From Candidatus Limnocylindria bacterium (GTDB lineage Bacteria > Chloroflexota > Limnocylindria > QHBO01): 40,975 nt of DNA. Below are positions 11,308 through 38,436 of this stretch, piece by piece. The translations under genes and the position numbers were made by a program. The number at the start of each line of letters is the position of its first letter. Position 1 is the stretch's first letter. The stretch is taken from assembly GCA_036375355.1 (NCBI GenBank), contig DASURX010000135.1, positions 1-40,975 of the forward strand, written 5' to 3'. Under the pieces are notes generated by a model. That model did not search any database. It was not told where the DNA came from and worked only from the letters and a program-made list of their open reading frames with translations.

Positions 11308-11398
11308 GCACGCGCCGACCGCCCTTGGAAGCCATGCGGGCGCGGAAGCCGTGTTCCCGCTTCCGAGCGCGCTTCTTGGGCTGGTAGGTCCTCTTCAT
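11264..11398 (-). CDS. rpmH: 50S ribosomal protein L34
   Basis: The 44-aa translation is [44 protein letters not shown]. Confidence 0.95.
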
Positions 11399-11658
11399 CG
11401 GTGCGTGCCTGGTCCTCGTACAGCGGCGGCGAGTTTCGATTGCCCGGAAACACACGAACGGCTGGCGCTGGCGCCAGCCTCACGCGATGGCCGTCTCCGG
11501 CTCGTCTCGCTCTGCGCGGCGATTCTACCCCAGACCGCCGCGGGGGTGTCAAACGCGCGAGGCGTGCCGTGACCAACGCCGTCGCGGGACGGGGACCATT
11601 GGCTCAGGCGCGGCGGGTGGTGCGCTTCGGCAATTCGTTGCCCACGCCGAGAGGGCGC

Positions 11659-11667
11659 TGCTACACT
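11659..11667 (+). promoter_or_regulatory. Candidate dnaA promoter, extended -10 TGCTACACT
   Basis: It fits the TGnTAnnnT pattern and lies about 110 nt upstream of ATG 11778. Confidence 0.35.
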
Positions 11668-11777
11668 GGCCCGACCCTCGACGCCGGAAGGCCCAAACGC
11701 CGGGTTCCGCGACCGCCGGAGGGAGTAGGATTCCGGTCCCGACGACCCCTCCGAACCGAGTCTGGAGACGCCGATTG

Positions 11778-13118: not shown

Positions 13119-13456
13119 CGGGTCCCGAGCGCCTCCTCGGCGTGGATAACCGGCCCGATATCGTGGATATCCCCTTCCGTGTGTGGACAACTGTCACCAC
13201 CCCGGCCCGCCGCGCGTCGGGGTTGGCCACCATCGGCCCACCGCCGACAGCCGGTTGATCCACCGCCCGGCCACCGACTATCCGCAGCGCTCTGATGGGC
13301 GGCCGCCGCACGCGGTGAACGCGGCGCCATCGGGCCATCCACAGCGTCCACACCCCTACGGGGACGGCGGCTGACTGAAGTATCCTTCTGGCTACCTCGT
13401 AACGGTACGCAAGCTAGCCCGTGGATTAGTCCGATGGGACCGCGGGCCCCGAGTGG
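13119..13456. other. Probable oriC: a DnaA-box cluster in the dnaA-dnaN intergenic region
   Basis: There are seven 9-mers close to TT(A/G)TCCACA. They are 13141-13149, 13162-13170, 13182-13190 (TGTGGACAA, the exact reverse complement of TTGTCCACA), 13255-13263, 13335-13343, 13345-13353 and 13420-13428. A less GC-rich stretch lies at about 13374-13432. Confidence 0.75.
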
Positions 13457-13474
13457 GTGAGGGTTGAGGTCTCG

Positions 13475-14596: not shown

Positions 14597-14664
14597 GCCT
14601 TCTCAGGACCGATGGCCGCGGCGCGCCACCCGAGCGGGCCCGCCCGGCGCGGCCGGAGCCGACC

Positions 14665-16262: not shown

Positions 16263-18485
16263 ATGAGCAAGCGACTGGGGACCAGGATCGGGCTGCCGGC
16301 GCAGGAGGATCGCCTGCCTGGCGCCCTGGACGTGGTGCGCTTCCACGAGCCGACGGTGGGCGCGCTGGCCCGCACGAAGGGCAGCCTGTTCCTCCTCGCC
16401 CAGCTCACCGGCGGCGACCAGGCCCTGGCGCGCGCCACGCGCGAGGCGCTGGAGCAGATCGAGCACGACTACTACTACGACCTGTCGGTCGGGCCGCTCG
16501 GCGCACTGGCCAAGGCCCTGGCCAACGCCAACCGGCGCCTGTATCACGGACGCGGCCGGCTCGGCATCCCGCGACGGGCCGGGGTGAGCGTCATCGCGGT
16601 GGCCATCCAGGGCCGGGAGGCGCACGCCGCCAAGCTCGGCCCGGCCGCCGCGGTCGTCCTGCGCGGGGGCCGCATGTACGAGGTGCCGCCGCCACCCGCC
16701 GTCCACGAGGAGGACCCGCGCGTCCGCGAGCGGCGCGTGGCCGCGACCCTCGGCGAGGCGCTCGAGATTCAGCCCTACACCTGGCACGGGGAGCTGGCGC
16801 CAGGCGACCGCCTGGCGCTGGTGAGCCGCAACCTGGCGCACGTGGTCGGGGTCGAGGAGCTGATGCGCGCCCTCGCCACCCTGCGGCCCGCGGCGGCGGT
16901 GGAGCACCTCGAGCGAGTGTTCCAGATCAGGGGCGGGCACGGCTCGGACGGGGTGCTCGCGATCGAGATCACCGAGCTGACGCCCACCACCACGACCCAC
17001 CAGCTGGAGCCGGTGCGGCCGGCCGAGCCGCTGGCCGGCCTCCCTGACCAGAGCCCGGTGCCCCTGGCCGACGCGATCGGAAAGCTGCTGCACCGCATCG
17101 GCGACGGGATCGATGCCGGGCAGGCGGCACTCGGCCGCGGGATCCTGTACGGCTTCAACTTCCTGCTCGCATTCGTGCCGCGGCGCCGGCCGGGGTACCC
17201 GCGCCAGATCCTGCGCACGCAGGTCGTGGAGGAGGGCCGCCGGCGGCGGCTGGGGATGGCGGGCATGGTCCTGCTGGCCGGCGTGATGGCGGTCGGAAGC
17301 ACCGTTGCCAGCCTGCCCACCGCGCGGCCAACCGAGGCCATCCCGCGGGCGCTGATCGCGCGCGAGGCGATTGAGGAGGCGCAGTCGCTGATCGCCCAGG
17401 TGCAGAAGCGGGAAGACGGAAAGACGCTGCTGCAGCGCGCCCCGGACACGGCCAGGGACCTGTTGAACCAGGCGTTCGCCGCGGTGCAGCGGGCGACGGA
17501 CGCGGGGGTGCCGAGCGGTGCCCTCGACCGCCTGCGCGACCGGGTGGACGCCGGCCTGGACACGCTCTACGCCGTGGCGCGCCTTGGCGAGGCGACGACC
17601 GTGGTCGACCTGGCCGCAGCCTTCGAGGAGATCGATCCGCTGGATATGGTGATCGCCGGCGACGGCTCGGCCTGGGTCATCGAGGATGCCCGCGGCCGGG
17701 TGATCCACGTCGACCCGGTGAGCGGCGAGGCGACCGTCGTGCTGCGCTCGGGACAGGCGGTCGGGGAGCTGACGGCGGGTGCGCCCTGGATGATCGCCAC
17801 CGCCGCGACGGACGTGGTGGTGATCGACCGCCAGCGACAGGCGTGGCGCTTCGACCTTACCGAGCGCGAGCCGCGGCCGCTGACCATCCCGGGCCTGGAC
17901 GCGCTGGCACCCGCCAGCCACCTGCTGGCGGCGCTGCAGCATCGGCCTCCGCTGGAGATCTTCAACCTGTATGCGGTCGACGCCGCGACCGGCATGGTCG
18001 ACAAGTGGTCGCCCGCCAACGTCGTGCCCGTGGTCTACCCGACGCCGCCCGAACCGTTTCTGGTCGAGGAGGCGGACCTCTCGCCGGCGAGCGCCCGCGA
18101 CCTGTTCGTGGACGTCAACATGTGGCTCCTGCAGCGCACCACGCTGACCCGGGTCAACTTCGGCGTGCCGCAGTCGCAGGAGGACTACTCGCTCGACCCG
18201 CCGCCGGACGCGGAGGTGCGCGCCGCGCTCGACTACCGCCTGCTCGACGGCGCCACGGTCGGGGATCGCGAGCTCTTCTACGTGTACGACGCGGCCAACG
18301 CGCGGATCATCGCCTTCCAGCGCGCCGACGGGGCGTTCGTGCGGCAATGGCTCGCGCCGCGGCGCGGCGAGGCCGCCGGCGTGCTGGACGAGGTGCTGGC
18401 CATGAGCGTCGCATCGGTGGCGGACGGACCGCCCTTTGCCCTGCTGCTGACCCCCAATCGCGTCGTCCGCGTCGTCCTCGAGTAG
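16263..18485 (+). CDS. Membrane-anchored PP2C-like pseudophosphatase with a large C-terminal beta-rich (propeller-like) domain
   Basis: The N-terminal roughly 230 aa align by eye to the PP2C/PstP motifs, but the metal-binding Asp residues are replaced. There is a TM segment (LGMAGMVLLAGVMAVGSTVASL) and a repetitive beta-strand-like C-terminus. Confidence 0.7.
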   Translation: MSKRLGTRIGLPAQEDRLPGALDVVRFHEPTVGALARTKGSLFLLAQLTGGDQALARATREALEQIEHDYYYDLSVGPLGALAKALANANRRLYHGRGRLGIPRRAGVSVIAVAIQGREAHAAKLGPAAAVVLRGGRMYEVPPPPAVHEEDPRVRERRVAATLGEALEIQPYTWHGELAPGDRLALVSRNLAHVVGVEELMRALATLRPAAAVEHLERVFQIRGGHGSDGVLAIEITELTPTTTTHQLEPVRPAEPLAGLPDQSPVPLADAIGKLLHRIGDGIDAGQAALGRGILYGFNFLLAFVPRRRPGYPRQILRTQVVEEGRRRRLGMAGMVLLAGVMAVGSTVASLPTARPTEAIPRALIAREAIEEAQSLIAQVQKREDGKTLLQRAPDTARDLLNQAFAAVQRATDAGVPSGALDRLRDRVDAGLDTLYAVARLGEATTVVDLAAAFEEIDPLDMVIAGDGSAWVIEDARGRVIHVDPVSGEATVVLRSGQAVGELTAGAPWMIATAATDVVVIDRQRQAWRFDLTEREPRPLTIPGLDALAPASHLLAALQHRPPLEIFNLYAVDAATGMVDKWSPANVVPVVYPTPPEPFLVEEADLSPASARDLFVDVNMWLLQRTTLTRVNFGVPQSQEDYSLDPPPDAEVRAALDYRLLDGATVGDRELFYVYDAANARIIAFQRADGAFVRQWLAPRRGEAAGVLDEVLAMSVASVADGPPFALLLTPNRVVRVVLE

Positions 18486-19050: not shown

Positions 19051-19805
19051 CCCCGCAGGACCGCCTCTCTATCGGTCCACAGGCGCCAGCGCAGCACCCC
19101 CAGGTCACGGAAGGTGCGCAGGATCTTGGTGAAGCTCGCCCCCGTGTTGGTGCCCGCCGCACGCGGGAAGTGGTTGACGCCGACCTGCGCCATCTTCACG
19201 CCTCGGGCGCGCAGCTTGATGAGCAGCTCGGCCGACAGGAACGGACCGTCGGCCTCCAGCCGCAGGCCGTCGAACACCTCGCGCCGGAACAGCTTCATGG
19301 CGCAGTCGATGTCGCGCACCCGCAGCCCAAAGGCGGCCGACACGATCGCGTTGTAGGTCTTGGCGATGAAGATCCGATGGAAGGGATCGCGCCGCTTGAT
19401 GCGAAAGCCGATGACCGCGTCGACCGGCTTGCGGGCATCGTCCAGCCGTACCAGCAGGCGCTCCATCTCGGCCAGGTCGAACTGCAGGTCGCCGTCGCTG
19501 AAGCCGATGAGCTCGCCGCGCGCGTTGGCGAAGCCCGCCTTCAGCGCGCCGCCGTAGCCGCGGTTGGGCTGATGGTGGACTCGCACCCGCTCGTCGGCCG
19601 TGGCCAGCGCATCGGCCAGCTGCGGGGTCCCGTCCGATGAGCCGTCGTCGACGATCAGCACTTCGAGCGAGCCGCCGACGAGCGGTCCCAGCTGCTGGAG
19701 GGCGAGCTCGACGGTGCGCTCGACGTTCTCCTCCTCGTTGAAGGCCGGGAAGAAGAAGGTCAGGCGCGGGCGGCCGGGCGGCGGGGTCGCCACGGGCTCG
19801 GTCAC
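19047..19805 (-). CDS. GT2 family glycosyltransferase, polyprenol/dolichol-phosphate sugar synthase-like
   Basis: The motifs FFFPAFNEEENV, LIVDDGSSDGT, NRGYGGALKAGF and GFSDGDLQFD are present. Its GTGA overlaps the upstream GT-C gene. Confidence 0.88.
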   Translation of the reverse strand: MTEPVATPPPGRPRLTFFFPAFNEEENVERTVELALQQLGPLVGGSLEVLIVDDGSSDGTPQLADALATADERVRVHHQPNRGYGGALKAGFANARGELIGFSDGDLQFDLAEMERLLVRLDDARKPVDAVIGFRIKRRDPFHRIFIAKTYNAIVSAAFGLRVRDIDCAMKLFRREVFDGLRLEADGPFLSAELLIKLRARGVKMAQVGVNHFPRAAGTNTGASFTKILRTFRDLGVLRWRLWTDREAVLRG

Positions 19806-21439
19806 TTGCGGCCCTCGATGCGGAGCAGGTCGGTATAGCCGGGGTAGGTGGAGACGGTCGTCGTCTCCCAGCGGGCGAGGATGCGCTCGACCTCCCAGTG
19901 GGGCGGCACCACGTACACCGGGCGGCGCCCCAGGTAGGCCTGGATCGCGGCATCGATCGTACCGTACCCGTCGTCGATGATGTTCCGCTCGTCGATGATC
20001 TTGACGTCAGGCCGTTCGCCCAGCACCCAGCGGTGGTACCACAGCGGCGTGCTGTAGCTCCACCAGCTGACCAGCACCGCATCGGCCGGGAGGGCTTCCT
20101 GGACCGATGCCACCCACGCATCGGCATCCCGGTTGGCGGCGGACTCGGACCGTTCCCCGTAGAGCGTGATGAGCCCCGCCGCCGGGAGCATCGCCCCGAA
20201 GAGCACGACCGCGGCACCCGCTGCGATGGCCGCGCGACGGCGCCCGACGAGCCCCAGCGTGCGGCGAGTGGCCTCCGCGAAGGCGCGGCCGCTGGCCGCC
20301 GAGAAGGCGCTCACCGCCACGCCGATGAGCACCGCGCCGACCAGCACGGTCAGCATGTAGTACCGGTCGATGTCGCCGTCCTGGAAGTTCATCGAGTACG
20401 CCACGTTGGCCGCGACTAACAGGCCCAGAAATGCCAGCGCGCGCGGGTCGCGGACCACCATGACCGCCGCGCCCAGCGCCGCCACCAGCCAGCCGGGGCC
20501 GACGAACTGCGCTGCCAGGATGCGGTCGGCATCGGCCCACTTGAAGCCCAGGTTGCTCAACGGGTCCGAGAACGGGTCGAACAGGTGGGAGAACTGCTCG
20601 GCGAAGACCAGGTAGCGGAAGCGCTCCCAGGTGTTGGGATGGGCGTAGAAGAGGGGCGGCTCCGGCGGCGTCAGGGCCCGGATCGGGATGTAGGCGTAGA
20701 CGGCAAGGCCGATGGCCAGGCACAGCGCGCAGCCGAGCACCAGGCGCCAGCGGCGCCAGATGCGCGCGTCCACAAGGAACAGCCAGGCGGCGATCCCGAA
20801 GGCCATCAGGCCGGTGAGCGGATGGTTGCCCATGCCCAGTCCGAAGACGAGCGCCGCGGCCATCAGCCAGCGACCCGGGCGTGGCGCGCCGCTCCACTCC
20901 GCTGAGCGCCAGCTGACCAGCAGCCATACCAGCAGCGCCACGACCAGGATGTGCAGGGCGTGGACATCGGCGCGCAGGGCATTGCGCCACGGCTCGGAGG
21001 CGAAGGCAAATCCCAGGCCGGCGATGGCCGATACCGCCGCGACCGTCAGCCGATGCCGCTCCTCCAGCAGCTGCGCGGCGATGAGCACCACCAGGCCCGC
21101 GGAGAGGGCCACGCACACCGCCGACAGCAGGTTCATCCGCCAGGCGACCTCGCCCCAGGGCAGGGCGTGCGACCACAGCCAGCCGACGAGCGTGTAGGTC
21201 GGGAAGCCGGTGGGGTGGAAGATGGACAGCGTGTACGGCACCGTCTGCGCCTCGGCGGTGTCCCAGAAGCCGATCGATGGCAGCAGCGTGCGCAGGTAGA
21301 TGGCGAACGCCACCAGCGCGACCGCCACCGCGGCCCAGGTCACCTCGGCCGTGGCGTAGGGCAGCACCGGGCCGCCCCGGCGCGCGGCAACTCGCTCCGG
21401 GTCGGGAGCGTCCGGAGCTCGATGTATACTCACCGCCAC
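19802..21439 (-). CDS. DUF2723 / TMEM260-like GT-C membrane glycosyltransferase
   Basis: It is multi-TM. The first loop reads IGFWDTAEAQTVPYTLSIFHPTGFPTY, matching the DUF2723 D..E / HP.G.P signature. A soluble C-terminal domain follows. Confidence 0.8.
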   Translation of the reverse strand: MAVSIHRAPDAPDPERVAARRGGPVLPYATAEVTWAAVAVALVAFAIYLRTLLPSIGFWDTAEAQTVPYTLSIFHPTGFPTYTLVGWLWSHALPWGEVAWRMNLLSAVCVALSAGLVVLIAAQLLEERHRLTVAAVSAIAGLGFAFASEPWRNALRADVHALHILVVALLVWLLVSWRSAEWSGAPRPGRWLMAAALVFGLGMGNHPLTGLMAFGIAAWLFLVDARIWRRWRLVLGCALCLAIGLAVYAYIPIRALTPPEPPLFYAHPNTWERFRYLVFAEQFSHLFDPFSDPLSNLGFKWADADRILAAQFVGPGWLVAALGAAVMVVRDPRALAFLGLLVAANVAYSMNFQDGDIDRYYMLTVLVGAVLIGVAVSAFSAASGRAFAEATRRTLGLVGRRRAAIAAGAAVVLFGAMLPAAGLITLYGERSESAANRDADAWVASVQEALPADAVLVSWWSYSTPLWYHRWVLGERPDVKIIDERNIIDDGYGTIDAAIQAYLGRRPVYVVPPHWEVERILARWETTTVSTYPGYTDLLRIEGRK

Positions 21440-21487
21440 CTTGGTTTGCGAGACCTGCCGGCGCCGGTGAGCGAGGCGCCGGGAGCG

Positions 21488-24400
21488 ATGACCCGCGACT
21501 CCGTGAGGGAGCGGGGCGCGTGGCCATTCGGTCTGCGCGTGCCGCGCGACCCCGCGACCGCGGTCATCCTCATCATCGTTGCTGGCGTGCTCCTGCGCGT
21601 CCTGCTTGCGGGCGTGCTGCTGCCGCTGAGCGGGTTCCGCATCGACGTCGTGGACTTCTCGGCCTGGGCGCAGCGGCTGGCCGACGGGGGACCCGGCGCA
21701 TTCTACGAAACCGGCTACTTCAGCGACTATCCTCCCGGCTACCTCTACGTGCTGTGGGTCATCGGATCGGTTGGCAAGGCCCTCCAGCCGCTGACCTTCG
21801 GCGTCGACGTCACCCCCGGCCTGGTCAAGCTCCCCGGCCTGCTGGCCGATGTCGGCGTGGCCTGGCTGCTGTTCGCGTACTGCCGCCGCTTCCTGCCCGG
21901 GCTGGGCGGCTGGTCCGGCGAGCGGATCGGGATGATCGCGGCGGCCATCTACGTCCTCAACCCCGGCACGATCTTCAACTCAGCGGTGTGGGGCCAGGTC
22001 GACTCGGTCGGGGCGCTGGTGGTGCTCGGCACGCTTTACCTGCTTGCCCGCGGCTGGACCGAGGCGGCCAGCGTGGCGGCCGTCCTCGCCCTGCTCGTCA
22101 AGTTCCAATACGCGTTCGTCATCCCGATCGTGGCCATCGTCGGGATCAAGCGGCACCTCTTCGGCCGCTCCACCGACCCCGAGCTTGACGGACGGCCCGA
22201 TCCGCTGCGGGTCCTGACGTCGCTGGCCGCGGGCCTGGGCACGCTGGTCGGGCTGATCTGGCCCTTCGGCATGGCCGTCTGGTCCCCCAGCCAGCCGAGC
22301 CATAGCCTGATCGACAAGTTCGTCGCGGCCGCGAACCAGTACAAGGGCCTCACCATCAACGGCTTCAACTGGTGGCGCAACCCGTGGAGCGGGCTCGGCG
22401 ACACGATCACCTGGGGCTGCGACGCACCGAACCCTCCCGGATGCACGGATGGTGCCGGGATCGCCTTCACCATCGGCTCATCGGCCGTCAGCTGGCAGTT
22501 GGTGGGCACCGTCCTGTTCGTGCTGGTCGCGCTCGTCGCGTACTGGTACGTGGCCCGGCGCGACGACGCCGTGGGCCTGCTCGACGCCAGCCTGGTGCTG
22601 GCGGTGGCCTTCTTCGCGCTGCCGACGCGGGTTCACGAGCGCTACCTCTTCCCGGCGCTGGCGCTCGCTGCGCCGCTCGTGGCGCGCGGCTGGCGCTGGG
22701 CGGTGCTCTACGGCCTGCTGGCGCTGTCCTTCTTCGCCAACGTGTACTGGGTCTACACCGCCGACTGGTCGTTCGCCGGCGACCCGCCCATGAACCCCGG
22801 CGTCGGCGGCCTGCCGATGACTCGCGACCCGTTCCTGGCCGGCACGCTCTTCAGCGACTGGGGCATCTACCTGCTCTCCTGGATGAGCCTGCTCCTGCTC
22901 GGCTTGCTGGTCTGGCGCACTTCGCGCCTCGCCTGGCGGGGCGTGCCGCTGCCGGAGCGCGCGCCACTGGCCGCGGCCGCCGGCCCTCCGCCACAGGCTG
23001 TGGGCGCTCCATCGGTCGACGACCTGCCCGTGGCCGACCCCGGCGGCTACGAGGGCGGGCCGCTCGAGCGGCTGCGCGCCTGGCTGCGCCCGGACCCGAG
23101 CGACCCGTACCTGCGCGAGAAGCCGCGACGCCTGGACCGGCTGGACGTGGCGCTGGTCATCGGCCTGGTGCTGCTCGCCTTCGCGTTCCGCCTGTGGCGG
23201 CTCGACACGCCGCGCGGCATGCACTTCGACGAGGTCTACCACGCCCGCTCCGCGACCGAGTGGCTGGCCGACTGGCAGGAGGGCTGGACGCGCGACACGT
23301 ACGAGTGGACGCATCCGATGCTGGCCAAGTACCTCATCGCGGCGGGCATCGTGCTGGCGGACCCGAACAAGGTGGTGGCCGCGACGGAGGTCGAGGAGCC
23401 TATCAGCGCCCTGGCGATCGCTCCGCAGCGGACCGCCTACAGCCGGCCGATCTCGGTGGCCTTCACGGCGGCCGGCGGCACGACGATCACGGCACGCAAC
23501 GCGGTGAGCGGGGAGGTGATCGCCCGCTGGGACGCCCCGGCGGCGGTGGCCAGCCTGGGCTACGACCCGGACAGCGAGCGGCTGCTCGTCGGTCCGGTCG
23601 CGGGCGGGGACGTGACGATCTACGACCTGGCGGCCTTCCTCTCCTCGCGCGGGGAGCGCTCGCCCCCGCCAGTGACGCAGAGCATCCCGACCGGGCTGGC
23701 CGGAGTCGTGGAGATCCAGGTGCCCGACGCCCAGGCCGTGGTGCTATTCCGCGGCCCCGATGGCCTGGTCGAAGTCGAGCGCGTGACCGGCGCGGAGCTG
23801 GCGCGGAGCGAGATTCGCGCCGGCGGGATGGGCTACCTGCCGGGGACCAGCAGCGACGACGCCGAGGGACCGATGGTCGTCGTCACCGACATGGACCGCG
23901 GCGTCCTGGCGGTGCTCGACGGCGGGACGCTGCAGCCGCTGCGCGCCGGCACCGGCGACCGGATCGAGGAGCTCCCGGCACCGCCGGTCGGGCCGCTCGC
24001 CCTCCAGGGCGGCGGCAACGACCTGCAGGTTTTCGTGCTGGTCGGCGCGCTGCCCGCCAATGACCAGCACCCGGCGGTCGAGGGCGGCATGGCCGTCTTC
24101 GACCAGCGCGTCAACCTGATCGACACGGCGCCGCTGCCCGGGGCCCCGAAGCTGATCGGCTGGCAGGCAGCGTCCGATGCCAGCGTCTGCGGCTCGGCGG
24201 TGGGCGGCTGCGGCTGGCTGATCTACGTCGCCGGCGACGATGCCTCCAGCGGGCAGCCGGCGGTGTGGGCGGTGCAGCCCATCGGCACCAGCGCCAACCA
24301 GGCCTCCGGCTTCGCCGCCTTCGACACCACGCTGCTGCCCGGCGAGCCGACCGCCATGGCGTTCGACGTCAACAACCACGACCAGGACGACGACCACGCC

Positions 24401-26182
24401 CGGCTGCTGGTGGCGACCGACGGCGGCCAGCCCCACCTGGTGCAGGTCGACGTCGGCAGCAACGCCTTCGCCTGGCGCCTCGCCGGCATCGCCTTCGGAT
24501 CGATCCTGGTGGCGCTCATCTACCTGCTGGCCGCCACGATGTTCCGCCGCCGCCGCATCGCCGTCCTGGCCGCCGCCTTCGTTGCCTTCGACGCGATGAG
24601 CTACGTGATGAGCCGGATCAGCATGAACGACATCTTCGTGGCGGTCTTCATCGCGGCGGCGTACCTGCTCTTCTGGCAGATCTGGTCCGGCCGCTGGGCG
24701 CGCAGCGCGTGGTGGGTGCTGCCGGTGGTCGGCGTGCTCATCGGGCTGGCGGCAGCCACCAAGTGGGTCGGCATCTACGCCCTGCTGGGCCTGTGGGTGC
24801 TGGTCCTGGCCCGGTCGCGCCTGGGACGCTTCCTGCTGGTGGCGGCCGTCGCCTTCCTGGCGGTGGTGGGCGGCATCGGCGCGCCGTGGCCATTCCTGGT
24901 GGTCTGCCTGGCGGCGCTGGCGATCGCCCTGCTCGTGGTCTGGCAGCGACCGATCCAGCTCGACATGCGCGACCTGGGCGGGCTGGCGGCAAGCGGCGTG
25001 GTGCTGGGAGGCATCGGCCTGGCCTTCGCGATGGCCTTCAACCAGGTGCCGGGCGCCAGCGAGCCGCGCAGCGCGGTCGAGCTCGTCTTCTCCGTGCTGG
25101 CCCGCGGCACCCAGGCGGCGTGGCCGGCCTGGATCATGGTCGCGCTGGCCGGCGTGCTGCTGCTGGCGCGCGCGGTCCTGTCGCTGGCGCGTCCCACCTC
25201 GGACCGCCGCTGGCTGCAGCCGGGAGAGATGGCGGGCTTCGCGTGGCCGTGGATCGGCGCCAGCCTGGCGGTGATCCCGCTGGTCGTCTATTTCCTGTCG
25301 TACGTGCCCTACCTGGAGCTCGGCCACGCCATCTCCGGCGCGAAGGCCGGTCCGGGCTACGGCTGGGCGCTCGACCAGCTGCAGTTCCAGATGTTCGGCT
25401 ACCACTTCGGGCTGCAGGCCGGGCACGCCTCCGCCTCACCCTGGTGGAGCTGGCCGCTCGACCTCAAGCCGGTCTGGTTCTACGGGCACGACATGGACAA
25501 CCGCACCATCGCGGTGGTCTACAACGGCGGCAACCCGATCCTGTTCTGGGCTGGCGTGCCGGCCATCGCCTTCTGCGCGGTCATGGCCTGGAAGCGCCGC
25601 TCTCCGGCGCTGGTGCTGCTCGTCGTCGCCTTCGCCTTCCAGTTCCTGCCGTGGACCCGGATCGAGCGCGCGACGTTCGCGTACCACTACCTGACAGCGG
25701 TCATCTTCGCCATGGTGGCGGTGGCCTACGTGGTGGACGAGGCGCTGCGCTCCTGGAACTGGCGGCCGTTCGCCATCGCGTTCCTGGTGCTGGCGGTGAT
25801 CGCCGGCATCCTCGTCTATCCCATGGGCGCGGCGCTGGCCATGCCCGACTGGTACATCAACCAGGCCCGTGCGCTGCCGCCGTGGAACTACGCGTTCAAG
25901 TTCCCCGACCCGCCGCAGGGCGACCGCGGGCAGCTGATCAGCGCGGACAGCCTGAAGCTGGCGCTCGGCGCGCTGGTCGCGCTGAGCGCCGCTGCCTTCG
26001 CCCTGTTCGGACGTTCCTGGCTAGCCGGGCCGGCGGCGCATCGAGACGGCGAGCAGGACGAGGCCGAGCAGGACGAGGCCTATCGGCCACAGCAGGTCGC
26101 GGTCGATGCCCGGGACGAACTGGTCGACCAGGAACCAGGCCCCCAGGCCGATCAGGATCAGCCCGAAGATCATCCCGCCTGA
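21488..26182 (+). CDS. Giant (about 1564 aa) fused GT-C glycosyltransferase: an N-terminal ALG6/PIG-V-like module plus a PMT (GT39)-like module interrupted by a soluble insertion
   Basis: The start is taken at ATG 21488. The ORF-track start 20951 runs antisense through the neighbouring gene. Module 1 carries FSDYPPGYLY and RVHERYLFP. Module 2 carries HFDEVYHARSA, HPMLAKY and a PMT-like C-terminus FAYHYLTAV. Confidence 0.85.
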   Translation: MTRDSVRERGAWPFGLRVPRDPATAVILIIVAGVLLRVLLAGVLLPLSGFRIDVVDFSAWAQRLADGGPGAFYETGYFSDYPPGYLYVLWVIGSVGKALQPLTFGVDVTPGLVKLPGLLADVGVAWLLFAYCRRFLPGLGGWSGERIGMIAAAIYVLNPGTIFNSAVWGQVDSVGALVVLGTLYLLARGWTEAASVAAVLALLVKFQYAFVIPIVAIVGIKRHLFGRSTDPELDGRPDPLRVLTSLAAGLGTLVGLIWPFGMAVWSPSQPSHSLIDKFVAAANQYKGLTINGFNWWRNPWSGLGDTITWGCDAPNPPGCTDGAGIAFTIGSSAVSWQLVGTVLFVLVALVAYWYVARRDDAVGLLDASLVLAVAFFALPTRVHERYLFPALALAAPLVARGWRWAVLYGLLALSFFANVYWVYTADWSFAGDPPMNPGVGGLPMTRDPFLAGTLFSDWGIYLLSWMSLLLLGLLVWRTSRLAWRGVPLPERAPLAAAAGPPPQAVGAPSVDDLPVADPGGYEGGPLERLRAWLRPDPSDPYLREKPRRLDRLDVALVIGLVLLAFAFRLWRLDTPRGMHFDEVYHARSATEWLADWQEGWTRDTYEWTHPMLAKYLIAAGIVLADPNKVVAATEVEEPISALAIAPQRTAYSRPISVAFTAAGGTTITARNAVSGEVIARWDAPAAVASLGYDPDSERLLVGPVAGGDVTIYDLAAFLSSRGERSPPPVTQSIPTGLAGVVEIQVPDAQAVVLFRGPDGLVEVERVTGAELARSEIRAGGMGYLPGTSSDDAEGPMVVVTDMDRGVLAVLDGGTLQPLRAGTGDRIEELPAPPVGPLALQGGGNDLQVFVLVGALPANDQHPAVEGGMAVFDQRVNLIDTAPLPGAPKLIGWQAASDASVCGSAVGGCGWLIYVAGDDASSGQPAVWAVQPIGTSANQASGFAAFDTTLLPGEPTAMAFDVNNHDQDDDHARLLVATDGGQPHLVQVDVGSNAFAWRLAGIAFGSILVALIYLLAATMFRRRRIAVLAAAFVAFDAMSYVMSRISMNDIFVAVFIAAAYLLFWQIWSGRWARSAWWVLPVVGVLIGLAAATKWVGIYALLGLWVLVLARSRLGRFLLVAAVAFLAVVGGIGAPWPFLVVCLAALAIALLVVWQRPIQLDMRDLGGLAASGVVLGGIGLAFAMAFNQVPGASEPRSAVELVFSVLARGTQAAWPAWIMVALAGVLLLARAVLSLARPTSDRRWLQPGEMAGFAWPWIGASLAVIPLVVYFLSYVPYLELGHAISGAKAGPGYGWALDQLQFQMFGYHFGLQAGHASASPWWSWPLDLKPVWFYGHDMDNRTIAVVYNGGNPILFWAGVPAIAFCAVMAWKRRSPALVLLVVAFAFQFLPWTRIERATFAYHYLTAVIFAMVAVAYVVDEALRSWNWRPFAIAFLVLAVIAGILVYPMGAALAMPDWYINQARALPPWNYAFKFPDPPQGDRGQLISADSLKLALGALVALSAAAFALFGRSWLAGPAAHRDGEQDEAEQDEAYRPQQVAVDARDELVDQEPGPQADQDQPEDHPA

Positions 26183-26557
26183 GCCCGTGCCGCGCCGGCG
26201 CGGGTAGGCAGGTCCACGGTAGCCCGCGTCCCACACCGGCTGGGCCGATGGCGCCGCCGCCTCGCCGGGAACGCCGGCACCCGGGGTCGCCTCCCCGCCC
26301 TCGACCGTGCCCGCGAGTGGCGCGGCTTCTCCTGGGGCAGCGGCGTAGGCGCCCGGGTAGCTGCCCTGCGGCGGTCCCTCGGGCACCACGATCCACATCA
26401 CGATGTAGAGCACGAAGAAGATGCCGCCGGTGACGATGGCGAGCACGGCCCACACGATCCGCACGATCGACGGGTCGATGTCCAGGTATTCGGCGACGCC
26501 CCCGGCGACCCCGCCGATGACGGAGTCGGTGCGGGAGCGGTACAGGCGTCGGTTCAC
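26021..26557 (-). CDS. PspC domain membrane protein
   Basis: The N-terminus reads RLYRSRTDSVIGGVAGGVAEYLDIDPSIVRIVWAVLAI, a canonical PspC domain, followed by TM segments. Confidence 0.85.
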   Translation of the reverse strand: MNRRLYRSRTDSVIGGVAGGVAEYLDIDPSIVRIVWAVLAIVTGGIFFVLYIVMWIVVPEGPPQGSYPGAYAAAPGEAAPLAGTVEGGEATPGAGVPGEAAAPSAQPVWDAGYRGPAYPRRRGTGSGGMIFGLILIGLGAWFLVDQFVPGIDRDLLWPIGLVLLGLVLLAVSMRRRPG

Positions 26558-32164: not shown

Positions 32165-33418
32165 CTACCGCCGCTCGGCGAGCACGCGGCCACGGACCTC
32201 GTGATAGAAGTCGATGATCTGTCCGGTCACGTGTTCCCAGTCGTACTCGGGCGCGCGTGCCCGGCCGGCCTCTCCCATCTGGTGGCGCAGCTCGGCATCG
32301 GTCGCCAGCTTGTAGAGCGCGGCGGCCAGGGCGCGGTGATTGCGCGGCTCGACCAGCAGGCCCTGCACCCCACGCTGCATGACGTTCTTGTAGCCGTGGA
32401 TGTCGGAGGCGACGATCGGGACGCCGGCGGCCATGGCCTCCAGCAGCACGATCCCGAACGACTCCTGGCCGGTCGCCGGTGAGCAGAAGATGTCGGCCGA
32501 GGCGAAGTAGCGCGCCTTGGCCTCGTCGCTGACCCGGCCCAGCCACTCCACGTCGCGGATCTGGCGCAGCCCGACGTAGCGGCGGTACTCGCGCGCCTTC
32601 GGACCTGAGCCGATCACCAGCAGGCGTGCGTCGACGTGCCGCTTTCGCAGCCGGTTGTAGGCCTTGATCAGGTGGATCAGCCCCTTGCGCTCCTCGAAGC
32701 GGCCGACGAAGAGGATGTTGATGGTGCCGTCACGGAGCTCCTCGAACGGCTCGGCATCGGCGTATCGATCCAGGTCCACCCCGTTGGGGATGATCCGGTA
32801 GTCGCCGGGGAAATAGCGGCTGATGAAGTGCCGCGCCGCACCGCTGACGGCGATGCGCCCGTCGAGCTTCTCGACCAGGTGGTGGGCGAAGCGCCTGCCG
32901 ATCCAGTAGGACGGGCTGAAGCCACCGAAGGCGTGAAAGGTGCCGATGTTGACCGTCTCCGACTGGTCGAGGACGGTCGGCGACAGGAAGGGCACCAGCG
33001 GCTCGTGGAAGTGCAGGACGTCGAAGCGCTGCTCGGCCAGCAGCTGGCGGGCGCGCTGCTTGAAGCGCCAGGACAGGGTGACGCGGCCCATGCTGCCGTT
33101 GGTGGGGAAGGCGAATCCGGTGCCCAGCCGGATGATGTGCCCCTCGCTCTCGCGCTCCTTGCCGTACTTGCTGGTGATGATCCAGACGTCGTGGCCCATG
33201 CTGGCCATGGCCTCGTACGTGAAGCGGACGTGCTCGTTGACCCCGCCCGGATGCGGGTAGCCGTAGGGGCTGACGATCCCGATCTTCAGCGGTGGCCGCT
33301 GGTCCGGAGGATGGACCGATGGAGTGGCCGGCGCCCGTTCCACGCCGGCGGCCGGCGCCGTGGACTCGATCTGGGTCACGTGCCCGAGTATGACCGATGG
33401 GCCGGCCGGCGTCGCCAC
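32165..33418 (-). CDS. pimA: GT4 family glycosyltransferase, PimA-like (phosphatidylinositol mannosyltransferase), with an N-terminal extension of about 45 aa
   Basis: The translation reads LKIGIVSPYGYPHPGGVNEHV...ESFGIVLLEAMAAGVPIVASD (EX7E). It is the last gene of the PI operon. The symbol is tentative. Confidence 0.75.
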   Translation of the reverse strand: MATPAGPSVILGHVTQIESTAPAAGVERAPATPSVHPPDQRPPLKIGIVSPYGYPHPGGVNEHVRFTYEAMASMGHDVWIITSKYGKERESEGHIIRLGTGFAFPTNGSMGRVTLSWRFKQRARQLLAEQRFDVLHFHEPLVPFLSPTVLDQSETVNIGTFHAFGGFSPSYWIGRRFAHHLVEKLDGRIAVSGAARHFISRYFPGDYRIIPNGVDLDRYADAEPFEELRDGTINILFVGRFEERKGLIHLIKAYNRLRKRHVDARLLVIGSGPKAREYRRYVGLRQIRDVEWLGRVSDEAKARYFASADIFCSPATGQESFGIVLLEAMAAGVPIVASDIHGYKNVMQRGVQGLLVEPRNHRALAAALYKLATDAELRHQMGEAGRARAPEYDWEHVTGQIIDFYHEVRGRVLAERR

Positions 33419-33446
33419 CCCGCGCTCCGCCGGCGCGGCGGTGCGC

Positions 33447-34166
33447 TCACCGCCACTCCTCGTTGCCCGGGCGAAGGGTGTGCCACAGGTGACGCAGCTT
33501 GGCGTGCAGCTGGTGGCGGTAGACGTCGACGTTGTGCGCGCTCGACCAGTGCGCCCCCTCGGCGGTCACGGTCGCCGCCTCGATCGCGGCGCGGTAGTCG
33601 GCGGCGGTGGCCCCGGGGAAGCTCGTGTACCCGGTCCCGATGTGGCGCAGCAGGTGCCCGTCGGAGTTGCCCACGCCGGGCAGCCCCAGCTCGGCGGCGT
33701 TGAGGTCGAGCCGTGCCCCGTGCCGCACCCGGCCGGCGTAGCTCGGGTTGAACAGCTCGAGCGCGTCGAAGTAGACATCGCGATGCTCGTGGTCACGCAC
33801 CCGCAGCAGGCTGCGCCGGCCGACGCTCAGCGGCAGCGGGGCGAGGGGATGCGCCGCGATGGCGATCCCGCCCTGGGCGTGGATGGCGTGCAGCGTCTCC
33901 TCCAGCGGCCGCAGGGCGGGCAGCCGATGGCCGACGAACAACGCCAAGACGTGGCCGCGACGGGTGGTCACCTCCTCGCCGACGACGAGGTCGAACGAGT
34001 AGTCGCCGGCGGCATGGATCTCGGCCGCCCGCAGCGCACCGTCGATCCGCTCATGGTCGGTGATGGCCACCACGTCGAGCTCGGTCTCGCGCTCCACCCA
34101 GTCCAGGATCTGGCGCACGCTGGCGGTGCCGTCCGAGTAGAGCGAGTGCAGGTGCATGTCGGCCAT
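33447..34166 (-). CDS. PHP-domain metal-dependent phosphoesterase
   Basis: The start is ATG 34166. The translation reads MADMHLHSLYSDGTASV...VVAITDHERIDG...IAIAAHP...GNSDGH, matching the PHP His/Asp motifs. Confidence 0.85.
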   Translation of the reverse strand: MADMHLHSLYSDGTASVRQILDWVERETELDVVAITDHERIDGALRAAEIHAAGDYSFDLVVGEEVTTRRGHVLALFVGHRLPALRPLEETLHAIHAQGGIAIAAHPLAPLPLSVGRRSLLRVRDHEHRDVYFDALELFNPSYAGRVRHGARLDLNAAELGLPGVGNSDGHLLRHIGTGYTSFPGATAADYRAAIEAATVTAEGAHWSSAHNVDVYRHQLHAKLRHLWHTLRPGNEEWR

Positions 34167-34222
34167 GCCCCGATCGCCGCCGCGCCGGGGCCGCCGTCCG
34201 TGGTGACGGGCCGGTGAGACGG

Positions 34223-35128
34223 TCACGCGTCGCCGCGCTGGTCGAGCCAGATCGGCTGGAAGGCTCCGAACCACTGCTCGGGCGTCTCGGCGATCACGGC
34301 CTCGAAGCGCTGGACCATGGCTCGCGTCAGGGCCGCCGCGTCCGCCTGGCGGTCGCCGCTGCGCTCGGCCGAGACCGGCCAGGCCGTGGCGGAGAATCGG
34401 TCCGGCCCGACGCGCACCGCGCGCGCGACCAGCAGCGGACGTCCGGTGCGCAGCGCCAGGACGGCCGGACCCAGCGGGACGGTGGTCTCGTGGCCGAACA
34501 GCTCGACGCGCATCCCGTCGCCGGCCAGGTCCCGGTCCGCGGCGAGGGCCACCACCTGGCCATCGCGCAGCGCCGCGAGCATCGGCCTCATCGATTCGGA
34601 GAGCGGGACAAGGCGGATGCCGCGGCCGCCGACGATGCGTCGTTGCAGCAGGAAGCGATACAGCTCCTTCGGCTCGGTCTCCTCCACGGGAGCCACGCCG
34701 GCGATGCCGTGCGACGCGATGAAGTGGCCGAACGGCTCGAAGTTGCCCAGGTGCGGGACGGCGACGACGCATCCGGAGCGGAGGATCGGGGCGAGGGCTT
34801 CCCAGCCCTCGGCCTCGAGCATGGCGTCGATGCGGGACTCGGAGTAGTGGTGGACGCGGAGGACCTCCAGCCAGTAGCGGGCGTGCTCCACGAACGCGGT
34901 GCGCACCAGGCGGCGGAACGCCGGGCCGTCGGTCGGGCGGCCGGTGGCCGCGCACACCCTGGCCAGGTTGGCTTCGACGACGCGGCGGCGTGCCGGCGAC
35001 CATCGGTGCCATGCCCGCCCGCCCAGGTCGGCCAGCGCATAGGCGGCGCGTGAGGGCAGCATCGCGGCGGTCGCATCGGCCAGGCGCAGCAGCAGGGGCA
35101 GGCCGATTCGTCGCAGCAGCCCGGACAT
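34223..35128 (-). CDS. HtrB/LpxL-family lipid acyltransferase (PatA-like), paralog A
   Basis: The start is ATG 35128. The HX4E box is VPHLGNFEP. A conserved VELFGHETTVPLGPAVLALRTGRPLL block is present. Confidence 0.85.
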   Translation of the reverse strand: MSGLLRRIGLPLLLRLADATAAMLPSRAAYALADLGGRAWHRWSPARRRVVEANLARVCAATGRPTDGPAFRRLVRTAFVEHARYWLEVLRVHHYSESRIDAMLEAEGWEALAPILRSGCVVAVPHLGNFEPFGHFIASHGIAGVAPVEETEPKELYRFLLQRRIVGGRGIRLVPLSESMRPMLAALRDGQVVALAADRDLAGDGMRVELFGHETTVPLGPAVLALRTGRPLLVARAVRVGPDRFSATAWPVSAERSGDRQADAAALTRAMVQRFEAVIAETPEQWFGAFQPIWLDQRGDA

Positions 35129-35132
35129 CGGC

Positions 35133-36158: not shown

Positions 36159-36184
36159 GCCGTCAGCCCCTCCGCGGACAACGC

Positions 36185-37399
36185 TCAGCGCGCTGCTGCC
36201 GCCGCCTTCGCGCCGGCGACCTTGCGGGTCGTCTTGCGCTGCGGCGTCTCCGTCCCCACCAGGGTCTCGTTGTCGTCGCCGCGGATGAAGGCCTCGACCC
36301 GCTCGCGCGCCACGTCGTCGTGGATCTGGATCGGCGGGGACTTCATGAAGTACGACGACGGGCCGACCAGGGTGCCCTTCAGGCCGCGGTCCAGGCCCAG
36401 CTTCAGGCAGCGGATGGCATCGGTGATGACGCCGGCGCTGTTGGGCGAGTCCCAGACCTCCAGCTTCAGCTCCAGGTTCAGCGGCACGTCGCCGTAGGTC
36501 GTGCCCTCCATGCGGATGTGGCACCACTTGCGGTCCTTCAGCCAGGGCACGTAGTCGGATGGCCCGACGTGGATGTCGTCATCGGCGATCTCGTAGTCGA
36601 TCATCGAGGTCACGGCGTTGGTCTTCGAGATCTTCTTCGACTCCAGCCGCTCGCGCTCGAGCATGTTCAGGAAGTCGGTGTTGCCCCCGAAGTTGAGCTG
36701 ATAGGTGCGGTCGATGCGGACGCCGCGGTCCATGAACAGCCGCGTCAGGACCCGATGGGTGATGGTGGCGCCCACCTGCGACTTGATGTCGTCGCCGATG
36801 ATCGGCAGCCCGGCCTCGGCGAAGCGCCGCTGCCAGTAAGGCTCACGGCCGATGAAGACCGGGATGGCGTTGATGAAGCCCACGCCCGCCTGCAGCGCCT
36901 GCTCGACATACCACTTGGTAGCCTCCTCGCTGCCGACCGGCAGGTAGCTGACCATGACGTCGACGTTGCGCTCGCGGAGGATGCCGACCACGTCGGCCGT
37001 GGGGCCGGGTGCCTTCTCGATGATCTGGGAGAGGTACTTGCCCAGCCCGTCGTGGGTCATGCCGCGCTCGACCGTCACGCCGGTGTGCGGCACGTCCGCG
37101 AACTTGAAGGTGTTGTTCTGCCCCGAGAAGACCGCCTCCGACAGGTCCTTGCCGACCTTCTCCTTGTCGACGTCGAACGCGGCCACGAACTCGATGTCCC
37201 GGATGTGGTATCCGCCCAGGTTGACGTGCATCAGCCCCGGGATGAAGTCGCCCTGCTTCGCGTCCTGGTAGTAGTAGCGACCCTGGACCAGGCTCGAGGC
37301 GCAGTTGCCCACGCCCACGATCGCCACCCGGATCTTGCCGTCCGACGGCCGCTTGCCGTTGGTCGCGCTCTTGCCGTTGCCGTTAGCCACGCTCTCCAT
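36185..37399 (-). CDS. ino1: myo-Inositol-1-phosphate synthase
   Basis: The start is ATG 37399, preceded by AAGGGAGA. The N-terminal motif reads [23 protein letters not shown]. The protein is about 404 aa. Confidence 0.92.
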
Positions 37400-38084
37400 T
37401 CTCCCTTGTCGTGTCGTCCGCCGCCGGCAGCGCAACAACCGCGCTGAGCCGATGGACATGCCAGATCCGCTGCACCGTGGTGATCGTCGCCAGGGTGGCC
37501 ACGATCGCCAGTGCTCCAATGAGACCGATCTCGAGGCCGAGCCCCGCCAGCGCGATGCCGGCGATGACCAGGACCAGCCGCTCCATGCGCGGCGCCAGCC
37601 CGACCGCTGCCGTCAGTCCGATGCCCTCGGCGCGGGCGCGGGTGTAGCTGACCAGGAACGAGCCGATGAGCGCCAGGATTGCCAGCAGCACCGGCAGCCT
37701 CGCGTCCCCCGCGCGCTGCAGGAAGTACGCCACCACGCCGCCGAACAGGACCGCCTCCGCGGCGCGGTCCAGCGTCGAGTCCAGGAAGCTGCCGAAGGTG
37801 GTGGTGCCCCCCGTCGCGCGTGCCAGCGCGCCGTCGACGGCGTCCAGCAGGGATCCCGCGGTCAGCAGCGCGGCGCCGGCGAGCAGGTTGCCCGTGCCGA
37901 CCAGCACCGAGGCCACGACCACGATGCAGAAGCCGATGACCGTGACCGTGTTCGCCGTCAGGTGGAGTCGCACCGCCAGCCGCACGACCGGGGCGAGCAC
38001 CGCGCGGCCGGTCTGCTTGACGCGCTCCGAGAGGAGCGAATCGCCGCGGCGCAGGTCGCGCGCCCGCGAGTGGCTAGCCGACAT
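37383..38084 (-). CDS. pgsA: CDP-alcohol phosphatidyltransferase, phosphatidylinositol-phosphate synthase-like
   Basis: It carries the motif [27 protein letters not shown] (DX2DGX2ARX8GX3DX3D). It is multi-TM and adjacent to ino1. Confidence 0.85.
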
Positions 38085-38436
38085 CGGGCAGCTCCCCGTG
38101 TCCGCCGCTCGTCGCGCGGGCGATGCCGGCGGTGCCGCCGACGACGCGCGCCTCCGCCTCGTGCAGCTCCTCGAAGGCGGCGGTGCGCAACCGGCAGATC
38201 ACCGCGCGCCCCTGCCGCCGCGTCTCGATCAGGCCGGCAAGGCGCAGGATGCGCAGGTGCCAGCTGATGAGCGGCTGCGAGAGCCCGACGTTGGTGGAGA
38301 GGGCATTGACCGGCATCGGCCCCAGCTCGGCCAGGAGGCCGATGATGCGCAGCCGGGTCTCGTCGCCGAGGGCCCGGTACAGGGTCCGCAGCCGGCGCAG
38401 GTCGCGCTCGCCGCTCGGTTCGCGAAGCATCGCCAT
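38074..38436 (-). CDS. ArsR/SmtB family transcriptional regulator. The ORF-track TTG start at 38457 is less likely.
   Basis: The wHTH reads LGDETRLRIIGLLAELGPMPVNALSTNVGLSQPLISWHLRILRLAGLI. No canonical metal-binding Cys motif is present. It overlaps the next gene by 11 nt. Confidence 0.85.
   Translation of the reverse strand: MAMLREPSGERDLRRLRTLYRALGDETRLRIIGLLAELGPMPVNALSTNVGLSQPLISWHLRILRLAGLIETRRQGRAVICRLRTAAFEELHEAEARVVGGTAGIARATSGGHGELPDVG

Follow-up and report, generated by a model that had tools for sequence, protein, structure and literature searches.

To our knowledge, glycosyltransferases with the C-type fold (GT-C) are normally single-module enzymes, and the way in which they choose their acceptors is poorly understood. 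The known bacterial protein O-mannosyltransferases (Pmt, family GT39), which include Rv1002c from Mycobacterium tuberculosis and Pmt from Streptomyces coelicolor and have Ppm1 as donor synthase, are single-module proteins of approximately 500-600 amino acids (aa). Here, we analyzed a gene from Candidatus Limnocylindria bacterium (Chloroflexota; GenBank assembly GCA_036375355.1), whose 1564-aa product joins two different GT-C modules in one chain: an N-terminal GT-C of an unnamed family (module 1) and a protein O-mannosyltransferase (PMT) module (module 2), which is interrupted by a predicted β-propeller. The gene lies on contig DASURX010000135.1, of which positions 1 to 40,975 of the forward strand (40,975 nucleotides) were analyzed and are referred to below as the window. 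The fused protein shares with bacterial Pmt the PMT and PMT_4TMC domains, the catalytic Asp-Glu motif between the first and second transmembrane helices (TM1 and TM2), the absence of a MIR domain, and a short outer loop EL4 with a β-hairpin (PMC12331936). Each is also partnered with a GT2 polyprenyl-phosphate-sugar synthase (PMC5882110), a probable one in the present case. However, the fused protein has a second GT-C ahead of the PMT, and its outer loop EL1 is enlarged by a 356-aa propeller.

The catalytic loop and the transmembrane core of module 2 are also similar to those of the eukaryotic PMT1, PMT2 and PMT4 proteins (yeast Pmt1-Pmt2, 6p25; C. thermophilum Pmt4, 9i5k), in which a soluble β-rich domain is likewise found close to the active site, on the outer or luminal face. 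In the eukaryotic enzymes, this is a β-trefoil MIR domain between TM7 and TM8, whereas in the fused protein it is a seven-bladed propeller placed between the EL1 helices and TM2. Eukaryotic PMTs function as obligate dimers of two PMT chains (PMC12705809), whereas here a different GT-C is joined to the PMT covalently. The same general principle, a GT-C core combined with a soluble outer domain that selects the acceptor, is found in TMTC1-4 and TMEM260 with their TPR domains and in AftD and EmbC with their carbohydrate-binding modules. The accessory domains of these proteins are C-terminal or located in later loops, in contrast to the propeller inside the catalytic loop EL1.

One polypeptide with two GT-C modules

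An initial annotation made from the DNA letters had proposed a single protein of about 1564 aa at positions 21488-26182, and the reading frame is indeed uninterrupted, running from the ATG at 21488 to a stop codon at 26180-26182 with zero internal stops. The longest version of this frame extends from a GTG at 20951 to 26182 (plus strand). The start was assigned to 21488 because the homologue consensus N-terminus MTRDSVR begins at this ATG and because the frame upstream of it overlaps a minus-strand gene with coding-like composition; a GGGAG sequence is present a few bases 5' of the ATG. Across the region, coding-like composition is confined to the plus-strand frame of the fused gene (GC3 0.92, GC2 0.50), and the long minus-strand open reading frames (ORFs) over it are the usual shadows in a genome of 70% G+C. 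Hydrophobic segments are found up to approximately residue 476 and at residues 552-570, are absent from residues 571-997, and are numerous again up to approximately residue 1513. A single polypeptide contains two complete GT-C modules with a defined domain layout, predicted folds, conserved catalytic motifs and linkage to a GT2 gene (Table 1). The motifs on which the initial annotation had relied are all in place, with DYPP at residue 80 (nucleotide 21725), HERY at residue 383 (22634), HFDEVYH at residue 579 (23222), HPMLAKY at residue 609 (23312) and FAYHYL at residue 1397 (25676), and so is its division into two different GT-C modules, one recognized by profiles and the other by its fold.

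Profile hidden Markov models identified module 2 as a PMT, in agreement with the GT39 hallmarks noted previously. The Pfam PMT model (PF02366) matched with 50.7 bits (gathering score 22.7) in two separate pieces, with profile positions 3-62 aligned to residues 560-626 and positions 80-202 to residues 991-1109, and PMT_4TMC (PF16192) matched residues 1297-1444 with 66.2 bits (gathering score 32.4). The N-terminal part of the module aligned with residues 52-110 of yeast Pmt1, and after deletion of residues 629-984 in silico the alignment extended in one piece over Pmt1 residues 52-251 (E 3e-4). In this alignment, D581 and E582 correspond to D77 and E78 of Pmt1, HPMLAKY to HPPLAKM, and R997 to R138. 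The conservation of the fused proteins, like the AlphaFold2 (AF2) model of residues 521-1564, is based on 68 sequences, and the Asp-Glu, HPMLAKY-region and R997 positions of the Pmt1 alignment are invariant in all of them. The Asp-Glu motif between TM1 and TM2 forms the catalytic centre of PMTs (PMC12705809).

The AF2 model of residues 521-1564 has a mean predicted local distance difference test score (pLDDT) of 83 and a predicted template modelling score (pTM) of 0.87. Module 2 has no Pfam MIR match and its TM7-TM8 loop comprises only about 75 residues in the model, as is consistent with the known bacterial PMTs, which lack a MIR domain (PMC12331936). The short outer loop EL4 contains strands at model residues 810-825, and this hairpin occupies the position of the WW-like element that binds the acceptor in M. 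tuberculosis PMT (PMC12331936) and is probably its equivalent. The C-terminal extension is modelled as a helix (model residues 968-992) followed by a tail with pLDDT below 50. The 3' end of the fused gene overlaps that of the convergent PspC-domain gene (26021-26557, minus strand) by 162 nucleotides (window positions 26021-26182), and the part of the protein encoded within this overlap is the non-conserved, disordered acidic tail.

The PMT module is interrupted directly after the HPxLxK helix by a soluble insert, which had previously been placed at approximately 23360-24465 and tentatively described as a propeller or lectin domain. The first of these guesses agrees with the structure prediction, in which residues 629-988 fold into seven four-stranded groups (28 strands in total), most of them with pLDDT 85-97; the strand-like stretches VTIYD, MVVVTD and LLVATDGG, which had suggested the domain, are all located within the insert. 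Foldseek comparison of the insert with the PDB retrieved seven-bladed WD40 propellers, including TLE1, DCAF1, G-beta and a Thermomonospora WD40 protein, with probability 1.00, template modelling scores (TM-scores) of 0.65-0.75 relative to the target and sequence identities of 9-15%. No Pfam match was found in the insert at E ≤ 10, including WD40, YVTN and PQQ signatures. A search of 1.84 billion representative proteins with the propeller sequence returned 61 relatives, nearly all of them fragments of the same family, so that the search gives no hint to a ligand. The insert boundaries were fixed at approximately residues 629-984 (23372-24439) by comparison with an insert-free relative, P0337, whose sequence GIALFGMNGFGWRVAG matches GIVLADPNK[...]VDVGSNAFAWRLAG of the fused protein. 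By homology with the PMT topology, the propeller is expected to be extracytoplasmic and to follow directly the two short helices that bear the catalytic residues.

Module 1 was modelled by AF2 with a pLDDT of 88 and a pTM of 0.90 (residues 1-485), and the model shows a GT-C fold. Its top Foldseek match is yeast ALG6 (6snh; E 4e-7, TM-scores 0.63/0.64, 539 columns, 15% identity), followed by PIG-U in second place, ALG3 and glycosylphosphatidylinositol (GPI) mannosyltransferase I (TM-score 0.67 relative to the target), while STT3, Emb, ArnT and Pmt4 are more distant. The fold is common to module 1 and ALG6 (GT57), ALG3 (GT58), GPI mannosyltransferase I (GT50) and PIG-U (TM-scores 0.52-0.63), and the group formed by these proteins and PimE also shares with module 1 an acidic residue at the first juxtamembrane helix and a late His-Glu-Arg/Lys-type motif; in the paper on PimE, ALG6 and PIG-U are listed among its structural neighbours. 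In contrast to all these proteins, module 1 scores below every Pfam gathering threshold, and its family is bacterial. Its ALG6 likeness is a similarity of fold only. The initial annotation had described this part as reminiscent of ALG6/ALG8 or PIG-V enzymes; the ALG6-like fold stands, whereas Pfam membership in either family does not. No match to Alg6_Alg8 (PF03155) or to Mannosyl_trans2 (PF04188; PIG-V/Gpi18, GT76) was obtained for module 1 at E ≤ 10, no match to GT87 (PF09594; PimE/DUF2029) was found in the fused protein, and NCBIfam models did not match module 1. The sole Pfam match is PIG-U (PF06728) at residues 112-226, which is sub-threshold with 21.0 bits (gathering score 24.5).

Similar results were obtained for the family of module 1 as a whole. 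A profile of the family found no match among PDB sequences at E ≤ 10, and NCBIfam gave weak matches to the archaeal STT3 model and nothing else. Pfam matches of the family members to PIG-U, PMT_2, Alg6_Alg8 and GT87 are weak and inconsistent, Alg6_Alg8 being matched by 7 of 29 members. The JGI label "Gpi18-like mannosyltransferase", carried by homologues, is the name given by that source. As judged from these searches, module 1 belongs to no curated family. An assignment of module 1 to the structural subclass GT-C_B was considered and dropped, since ALG6, PimE, ArnT and PglB are classed in the literature as GT-C_A (PMC12041525); therefore the two modules differ by sequence family and should not be called different structural subclasses.

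Module 1 contains 76 columns invariant in the 68 fused homologues, including D53, DYPP, WGQxD, K205 and PTRVHERY. D53 lies just upstream of DYPP, at the start of the first juxtamembrane helix, and all four residues of the latter (D80, Y81, P82, P83) are invariant. Stand-alone homologues of module 1 (460-550 aa, 34-42% identity) are also known, and the residues common to fused and stand-alone members (29 sequences) are D53, Y81, P83, D121, G169-Q170-D172, E192, K205, R222 and the entire PTRVHERY motif, whose eight columns are invariant in both groups. This motif may be the site that binds the phosphate of the donor. Judging from the predicted helices and the positive-inside rule, module 1 probably has 12 TM helices, its N- and C-termini both being cytoplasmic and the invariant polar motifs outside.

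The matches to PIG-U bear on an alternative in which only one module is catalytic and the other, most likely module 1, is a non-enzymatic GT-C scaffold, which may replace the dimer partner of a PMT. PIG-U is a non-catalytic GT-C-fold component of the GPI transamidase, and it is both the only Pfam match of module 1 and the second of its structural matches. With eukaryotic PMTs being obligate dimers (PMC12705809), a fused second GT-C could therefore be a built-in partner. Nevertheless, we regard this explanation as quite improbable, because module 1 has invariant D53, D80, D121, D172, E192, K205, H383, E384 and R385, all on its outer face, and its charged residues are invariant or nearly so even in stand-alone relatives that have no PMT, which is the pattern expected of an active site. 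The very existence of stand-alone members argues for an enzymatic function of the module 1 family. Both modules look active from their conservation, the motifs of module 1 being kept in its stand-alone relatives and the catalytic loop of module 2 being the most conserved part of the whole protein, with a mean identity of 82% and 37% invariant columns. The corresponding values are 71-75% and 22-25% for the PMT core, 65% and 16% for module 1, 49% and 5% for the propeller, and 39% and none for the acidic tail.

The two modules are connected by a linker for which a homologue consensus is undefined; in its sampled part (residues 521-550), 2 of 30 columns are invariant. A cytosolic N-terminus has been demonstrated for M. 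tuberculosis PMT (PMC12331936), and together with the positive-inside rule this suggests that the linker is cytoplasmic and that the PMT module of the fused protein probably begins on the same side of the membrane as bacterial Pmt.

Table 1. Positions of the fused gene, its domains and motifs, and neighbouring glycosylation and inositol-lipid genes in the window.
Feature	Position	Strand	Basis or remark
Fused double GT-C glycosyltransferase gene	21488..26182	+	Continuous ORF, 1564 aa
Module 1, GT-C of unmodelled family (aa 1-485)	21488..22942	+	AF2 fold ALG6/PIG-U/ALG3-like
DYPP motif (aa 80-83), first outer loop of module 1	21725..21736	+	Invariant in 68 fused homologues
PTRVHERY motif (aa 379-386), module 1, predicted outer-face loop	22622..22645	+	Eight invariant columns
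Linker (aa 486-550)	22943..23137	+	Pro/Ala-rich, variable, Arg and Lys clusters at flanks, predicted cytoplasmic
PMT N-terminal part (aa 551-628): TM1 and catalytic outer loop EL1	23138..23371	+	Pfam PMT positions 3-62
Asp-Glu motif D581-E582, EL1 of PMT module	23228..23233	+	Aligned with Pmt1 D77/E78
Predicted seven-bladed β-propeller (aa 629-984), EL1, between HPxLxK helix and TM2	23372..24439	+	AF2, Foldseek
PMT transmembrane core, TM2 onward (aa 985-1290)	24440..25357	+	Pfam PMT positions 80-202
R997, PMT core	24476..24478	+	Aligned with yeast Pmt1 R138; invariant
PMT_4TMC region (aa 1291-1450), short outer loop EL4, β-hairpin aa ~1330-1345	25358..25837	+	PF16192
C-terminal extension (aa 1451-1564): one helix and disordered acidic tail	25838..26182	+	AF2
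GT2 enzyme, 252 aa	19047..19805	-	PF00535
TMEM260-like GT-C, 545 aa	19802..21439	-	PF11028, E 6e-29
GT4	32165..33418	-	Downstream in window
PHP-domain metallohydrolase-like protein	33447..35012	-	Downstream in window
Inositol-3-phosphate synthase (Ino1)	36185..37612	-	553 bits
PIP synthase	37383..38198	-	161 bits (cut-off 170)

Conservation and relatives of the fused protein

A search with the whole protein returned 1086 homologues, the top 120 of which are 1275-1647 aa long and align mostly with 90-100% coverage and 55-69% identity. The top homologues come from JGI, ENA, NCBI and Logan, and those with a taxonomic name are assigned to Chloroflexota or Candidatus Limnocylindria. More than 100 full-length homologues (protein clusters) have the same layout. 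In a survey of GTDB with one genome per species, 559 stretches encode a relative; 77 of these loci were fetched, and nearly all of them belong to Limnocylindria. A few are found under other labels and are probably mis-binned, because their synteny is identical. A second clade, labelled Limnocylindrales, shows approximately 34% identity in a single alignment over residues 20-1418 and has a longer insert.

These data also bear on the explanation that the long ORF is an artefact, produced either by an assembly or sequencing error that joined two genes or by foreign DNA inserted into a PMT gene. Some database entries are indeed shorter (600-850 aa), and at several loci of nanopore-derived metagenome-assembled genomes (MAGs) the gene is split across reading frames. 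However, the short entries are marked as partial, located on short contigs or derived from frameshifted loci, whereas JGI, ENA, NCBI and Logan together contribute more than 100 independent clusters with the full-length form and, except for the few nanopore-derived MAGs, the gene is intact in the fetched GTDB loci that are long enough. In coding composition, the propeller region does not differ from the remainder of the gene, and it is kept in place in the clade with 34% identity. We therefore consider an artefact extremely unlikely; the assembly join against which the initial annotation had cautioned is ruled out by the more than 100 clusters and the hundreds of GTDB species with the same layout. 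Taken together, these comparisons indicate a genuine and ancient fusion. We also looked for a version naturally split into two genes, which would have been evidence of functional linkage, and found none.

In the five nanopore "MFD" MAG loci L041, L053, L055, L057 and L062, the fused gene is present in 2-11 pieces in different frames. These breaks are probably homopolymer errors, which yield truncated database entries.

Three relatives with other layouts, annotated in databases as "phospholipid carrier-dependent glycosyltransferase" or without a name, were also identified. P0250 (967 aa) has the PMT with the propeller and no module 1; it is a singleton with a different gene context and the only true stand-alone PMT with a propeller that was found. 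P0334 (TMC30402.1, 1196 aa, Chloroflexota) and P0337 (1026 aa, L079 6001-9081) both consist of a module 1-like GT-C followed by a PMT. The former has a β-rich insert of approximately 275 aa at the propeller site, and the latter has no insert after its HPPLGK helix. A β-rich soluble segment of approximately 100 aa is also present in P0337, apparently between the putative first PMT transmembrane helix and the DE motif.

Genomic neighbourhood

The fused gene is located near the replication origin. The gene order in the window is dnaA, dnaN and recF (plus strand), a gene for a 740-aa membrane protein, a bifunctional-nuclease-domain gene, a GT2 gene, a TMEM260-like GT-C gene, the fused gene, PspC-like and LiaF-like genes (minus strand) and an ABC transporter. 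From dnaN to the LiaF-like gene, this arrangement is repeated in approximately 60 loci, with the TMEM260-like gene missing from a subset. The GT2 enzyme is related (NCBIfam, PDB) to ArnC (E 6e-18), the P. furiosus Dol-P-Man synthase (E 2e-10), GtrB, PgfS and Dol-P-hexose transferase, and is thus a probable polyprenyl-phosphate-sugar synthase making a lipid-linked donor. Its gene adjoins the fused gene in nearly all loci that reach that far upstream and is syntenic in both clades. The TMEM260-like GT-C, whose PDB match is human TMEM260 (9rql, E 1.4e-14), is present in most but not all syntenic loci. Its gene is divergent from the fused gene, with approximately 48 bp between the start codons, and no promoter or terminator was found by a scan of this intergenic region. 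Therefore, the cluster of the GT2, TMEM260-like and fused genes contains three GT-C units. The GT2 and TMEM260-like genes overlap by 4 nucleotides (19802-19805).

Three-component glycosylation systems, such as GtrA/GtrB/GtrC and streptococcal Pgf, also have a GT2 gene beside an outward-acting GT-C (PMC11127046), as seen here by homology and synteny. In contrast to these systems, the cluster of the fused gene has no recognized flippase among the larger ORFs, and two of its GT-C units are fused with the third one being separate. In the distant Limnocylindrales clade, a GT4 gene is found directly 3' of the fused gene, followed by a PHP-domain gene and Ino1, all within approximately 5 kb. From this order, the conserved island consists of GT2, TMEM260-like, fused GT-C, GT4, PHP and Ino1 genes. 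In the window, the GT4, PHP-domain, inositol-3-phosphate synthase and PIP synthase genes are found farther downstream (32165-38198), so that this Chloroflexota genome encodes phosphatidylinositol lipid synthesis.

The 740-aa protein encoded between recF and the bifunctional-nuclease gene (16263-18485, plus strand) is found in approximately 60 loci. It has one central transmembrane segment and no Pfam or NCBIfam match, and its sequence identity is 60-76% in the close clade and approximately 30% in the distant clade. The neighbourhood of the replication origin (8531-15849) includes jag/khpB-like (8531-9541, minus strand), yidC (9535-10782, minus strand), dnaA (ATG at 11487, to 13118, plus strand), dnaN (13457-14596, plus strand) and recF (14665-15849, plus strand), and the gap at 10783-11486 is a candidate oriC. 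SmpB is encoded at 5336-5878 (plus strand), and ARAGORN found no tmRNA and no tRNA in the whole 41-kb window.

Proposed function and significance

We propose that the fused protein acts in extracytoplasmic glycosylation, in which the PMT module O-glycosylates proteins held by the propeller and module 1 adds a further sugar, and we estimate the probability of this reading at roughly 50%. Both modules most likely use polyprenyl-phosphate sugars and have their active sites facing outward. We infer the following scheme as to which sugar and acceptors are used, what the propeller does and how the modules cooperate. The GT2 enzyme would charge polyprenyl phosphate with a sugar on the inner side of the membrane, mannose or some other hexose being the most likely candidate. 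Once this donor has flipped to the outside, the PMT module would pass the sugar to Ser or Thr residues of exported proteins. The propeller beside the active site may hold or select the acceptor, in the manner of MIR in eukaryotic PMTs or of TPR domains in TMTC and TMEM260, a role that would also parallel that of the EL4 hairpin of M. tuberculosis PMT. Module 1 would draw on the same donor pool and add a sugar, with either the new O-glycan or a different component of the envelope as its acceptor. The sequence relationships of the cluster speak for a protein acceptor, as two of its three GT-C units are homologous to protein O-mannosyltransferase families (PMT and TMEM260), and the absence of MIR from bacterial PMTs leaves room for another acceptor-handling domain.

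Several observations weigh against this proposal. The NCBIfam equivalog model of bacterial Pmt (NF058602) has a cut-off of 800 bits, of which the fused protein reaches 29.3; this makes module 2 a distant relative of PMTs and not an orthologue of the actinobacterial enzyme, and given this distance its acceptor could differ from those of Pmt. Module 1 matches no curated family and hence none that would point to its acceptor. The propeller is poorly conserved at its surface (5% invariant columns), and no ligand site was identified in it. No flippase domain of the GtrA or SMR type was found in the larger ORFs of the window (approximately 150 aa or longer). Finally, the GT4 and inositol-3-phosphate synthase genes, and in the window also the PIP synthase gene, are located nearby, which would fit a glycolipid product.

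This last observation leads to the main rival explanation, in which both modules, or at least module 1, extend a phosphatidylinositol-anchored glycolipid or a wall polymer from polyprenyl-phosphate sugars, with the propeller being lectin-like. A parallel is provided by PimE and MptA/B, which act in the synthesis of phosphatidylinositol mannosides, lipomannan and lipoarabinomannan in actinobacteria. In addition to the inositol and GT4 genes of the window, the distant clade keeps GT4, the PHP-domain gene and Ino1 in one island with the GT2 and GT-C genes. Furthermore, weak matches to GT87, to which PimE belongs, were obtained for 4 of 29 relatives of module 1 (best E 4e-7), P0334 and P0337 match GT87 as well, and GPI mannosyltransferase I, an enzyme acting on an inositol lipid, is among the top structural matches of module 1. 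However, the fused protein itself has no GT87 match, and module 2 bears the PMT and PMT_4TMC signature together with the DE, R64-like and R138-like residues of protein O-mannosyltransferases. The third GT-C in the cluster is similar to TMEM260, which is a protein O-mannosyltransferase. Moreover, the inositol genes of the window are 6-12 kb away, behind the unrelated PspC, LiaF and ABC transporter genes, and may be housekeeping lipid genes near the replication origin. On balance, synthesis of a lipoglycan or polysaccharide appears rather unlikely.

Within the proposed protein glycosylation, a more specific and more speculative scheme is that of a self-contained O-glycan assembly line. In this scheme, the propeller would capture exported proteins by stretches that are unfolded or rich in Ser/Thr, the PMT module would attach the first hexose, and the ALG6/PimE-like module would extend it using the same donor, with the covalent GT-C pair replacing the eukaryotic PMT dimer. 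We consider this unlikely in its full form. If true, it would set two precedents, the coupling of two successive GT-C reactions within a single chain and an acceptor-binding domain built into the catalytic loop EL1.

The full-text literature searches, which covered GT-C fusions, propeller-bearing PMTs, glycosyltransferases of Limnocylindria and O-mannosylation in Chloroflexi, did not turn up any account of tandem GT-C proteins, of PMTs with propellers or of the fused family in Limnocylindria. The initial annotation, too, had named no described bacterial Pmt with this fusion and insertion. The sequences themselves are already public under generic names, such as "phospholipid carrier-dependent glycosyltransferase", so it is the description that is new and not their existence. 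Likewise, the parts of the fused protein are all of known kinds, and what is new is their combination and the fact that an accessory domain lies within the catalytic loop. Two unusual features occur at once, the fusion of two different GT-C enzymes and a propeller spliced into the PMT loop that carries the catalytic residues. The former opens a test of physical cooperation between two GT-C enzymes, and the latter a test of whether the role of MIR or TPR domains can be taken over by an accessory domain in EL1. The relatives whose insert is shorter or absent, and those lacking module 1, represent a natural deletion series.

The fused protein is a conserved hallmark of Limnocylindria, and this Chloroflexota class is known for the most part through metagenome-assembled genomes. 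Since its gene belongs to a conserved island near the replication origin, together with the GT2, the TMEM260-like GT-C, GT4 and inositol-lipid genes, the fused protein is probably central to envelope building in these bacteria.

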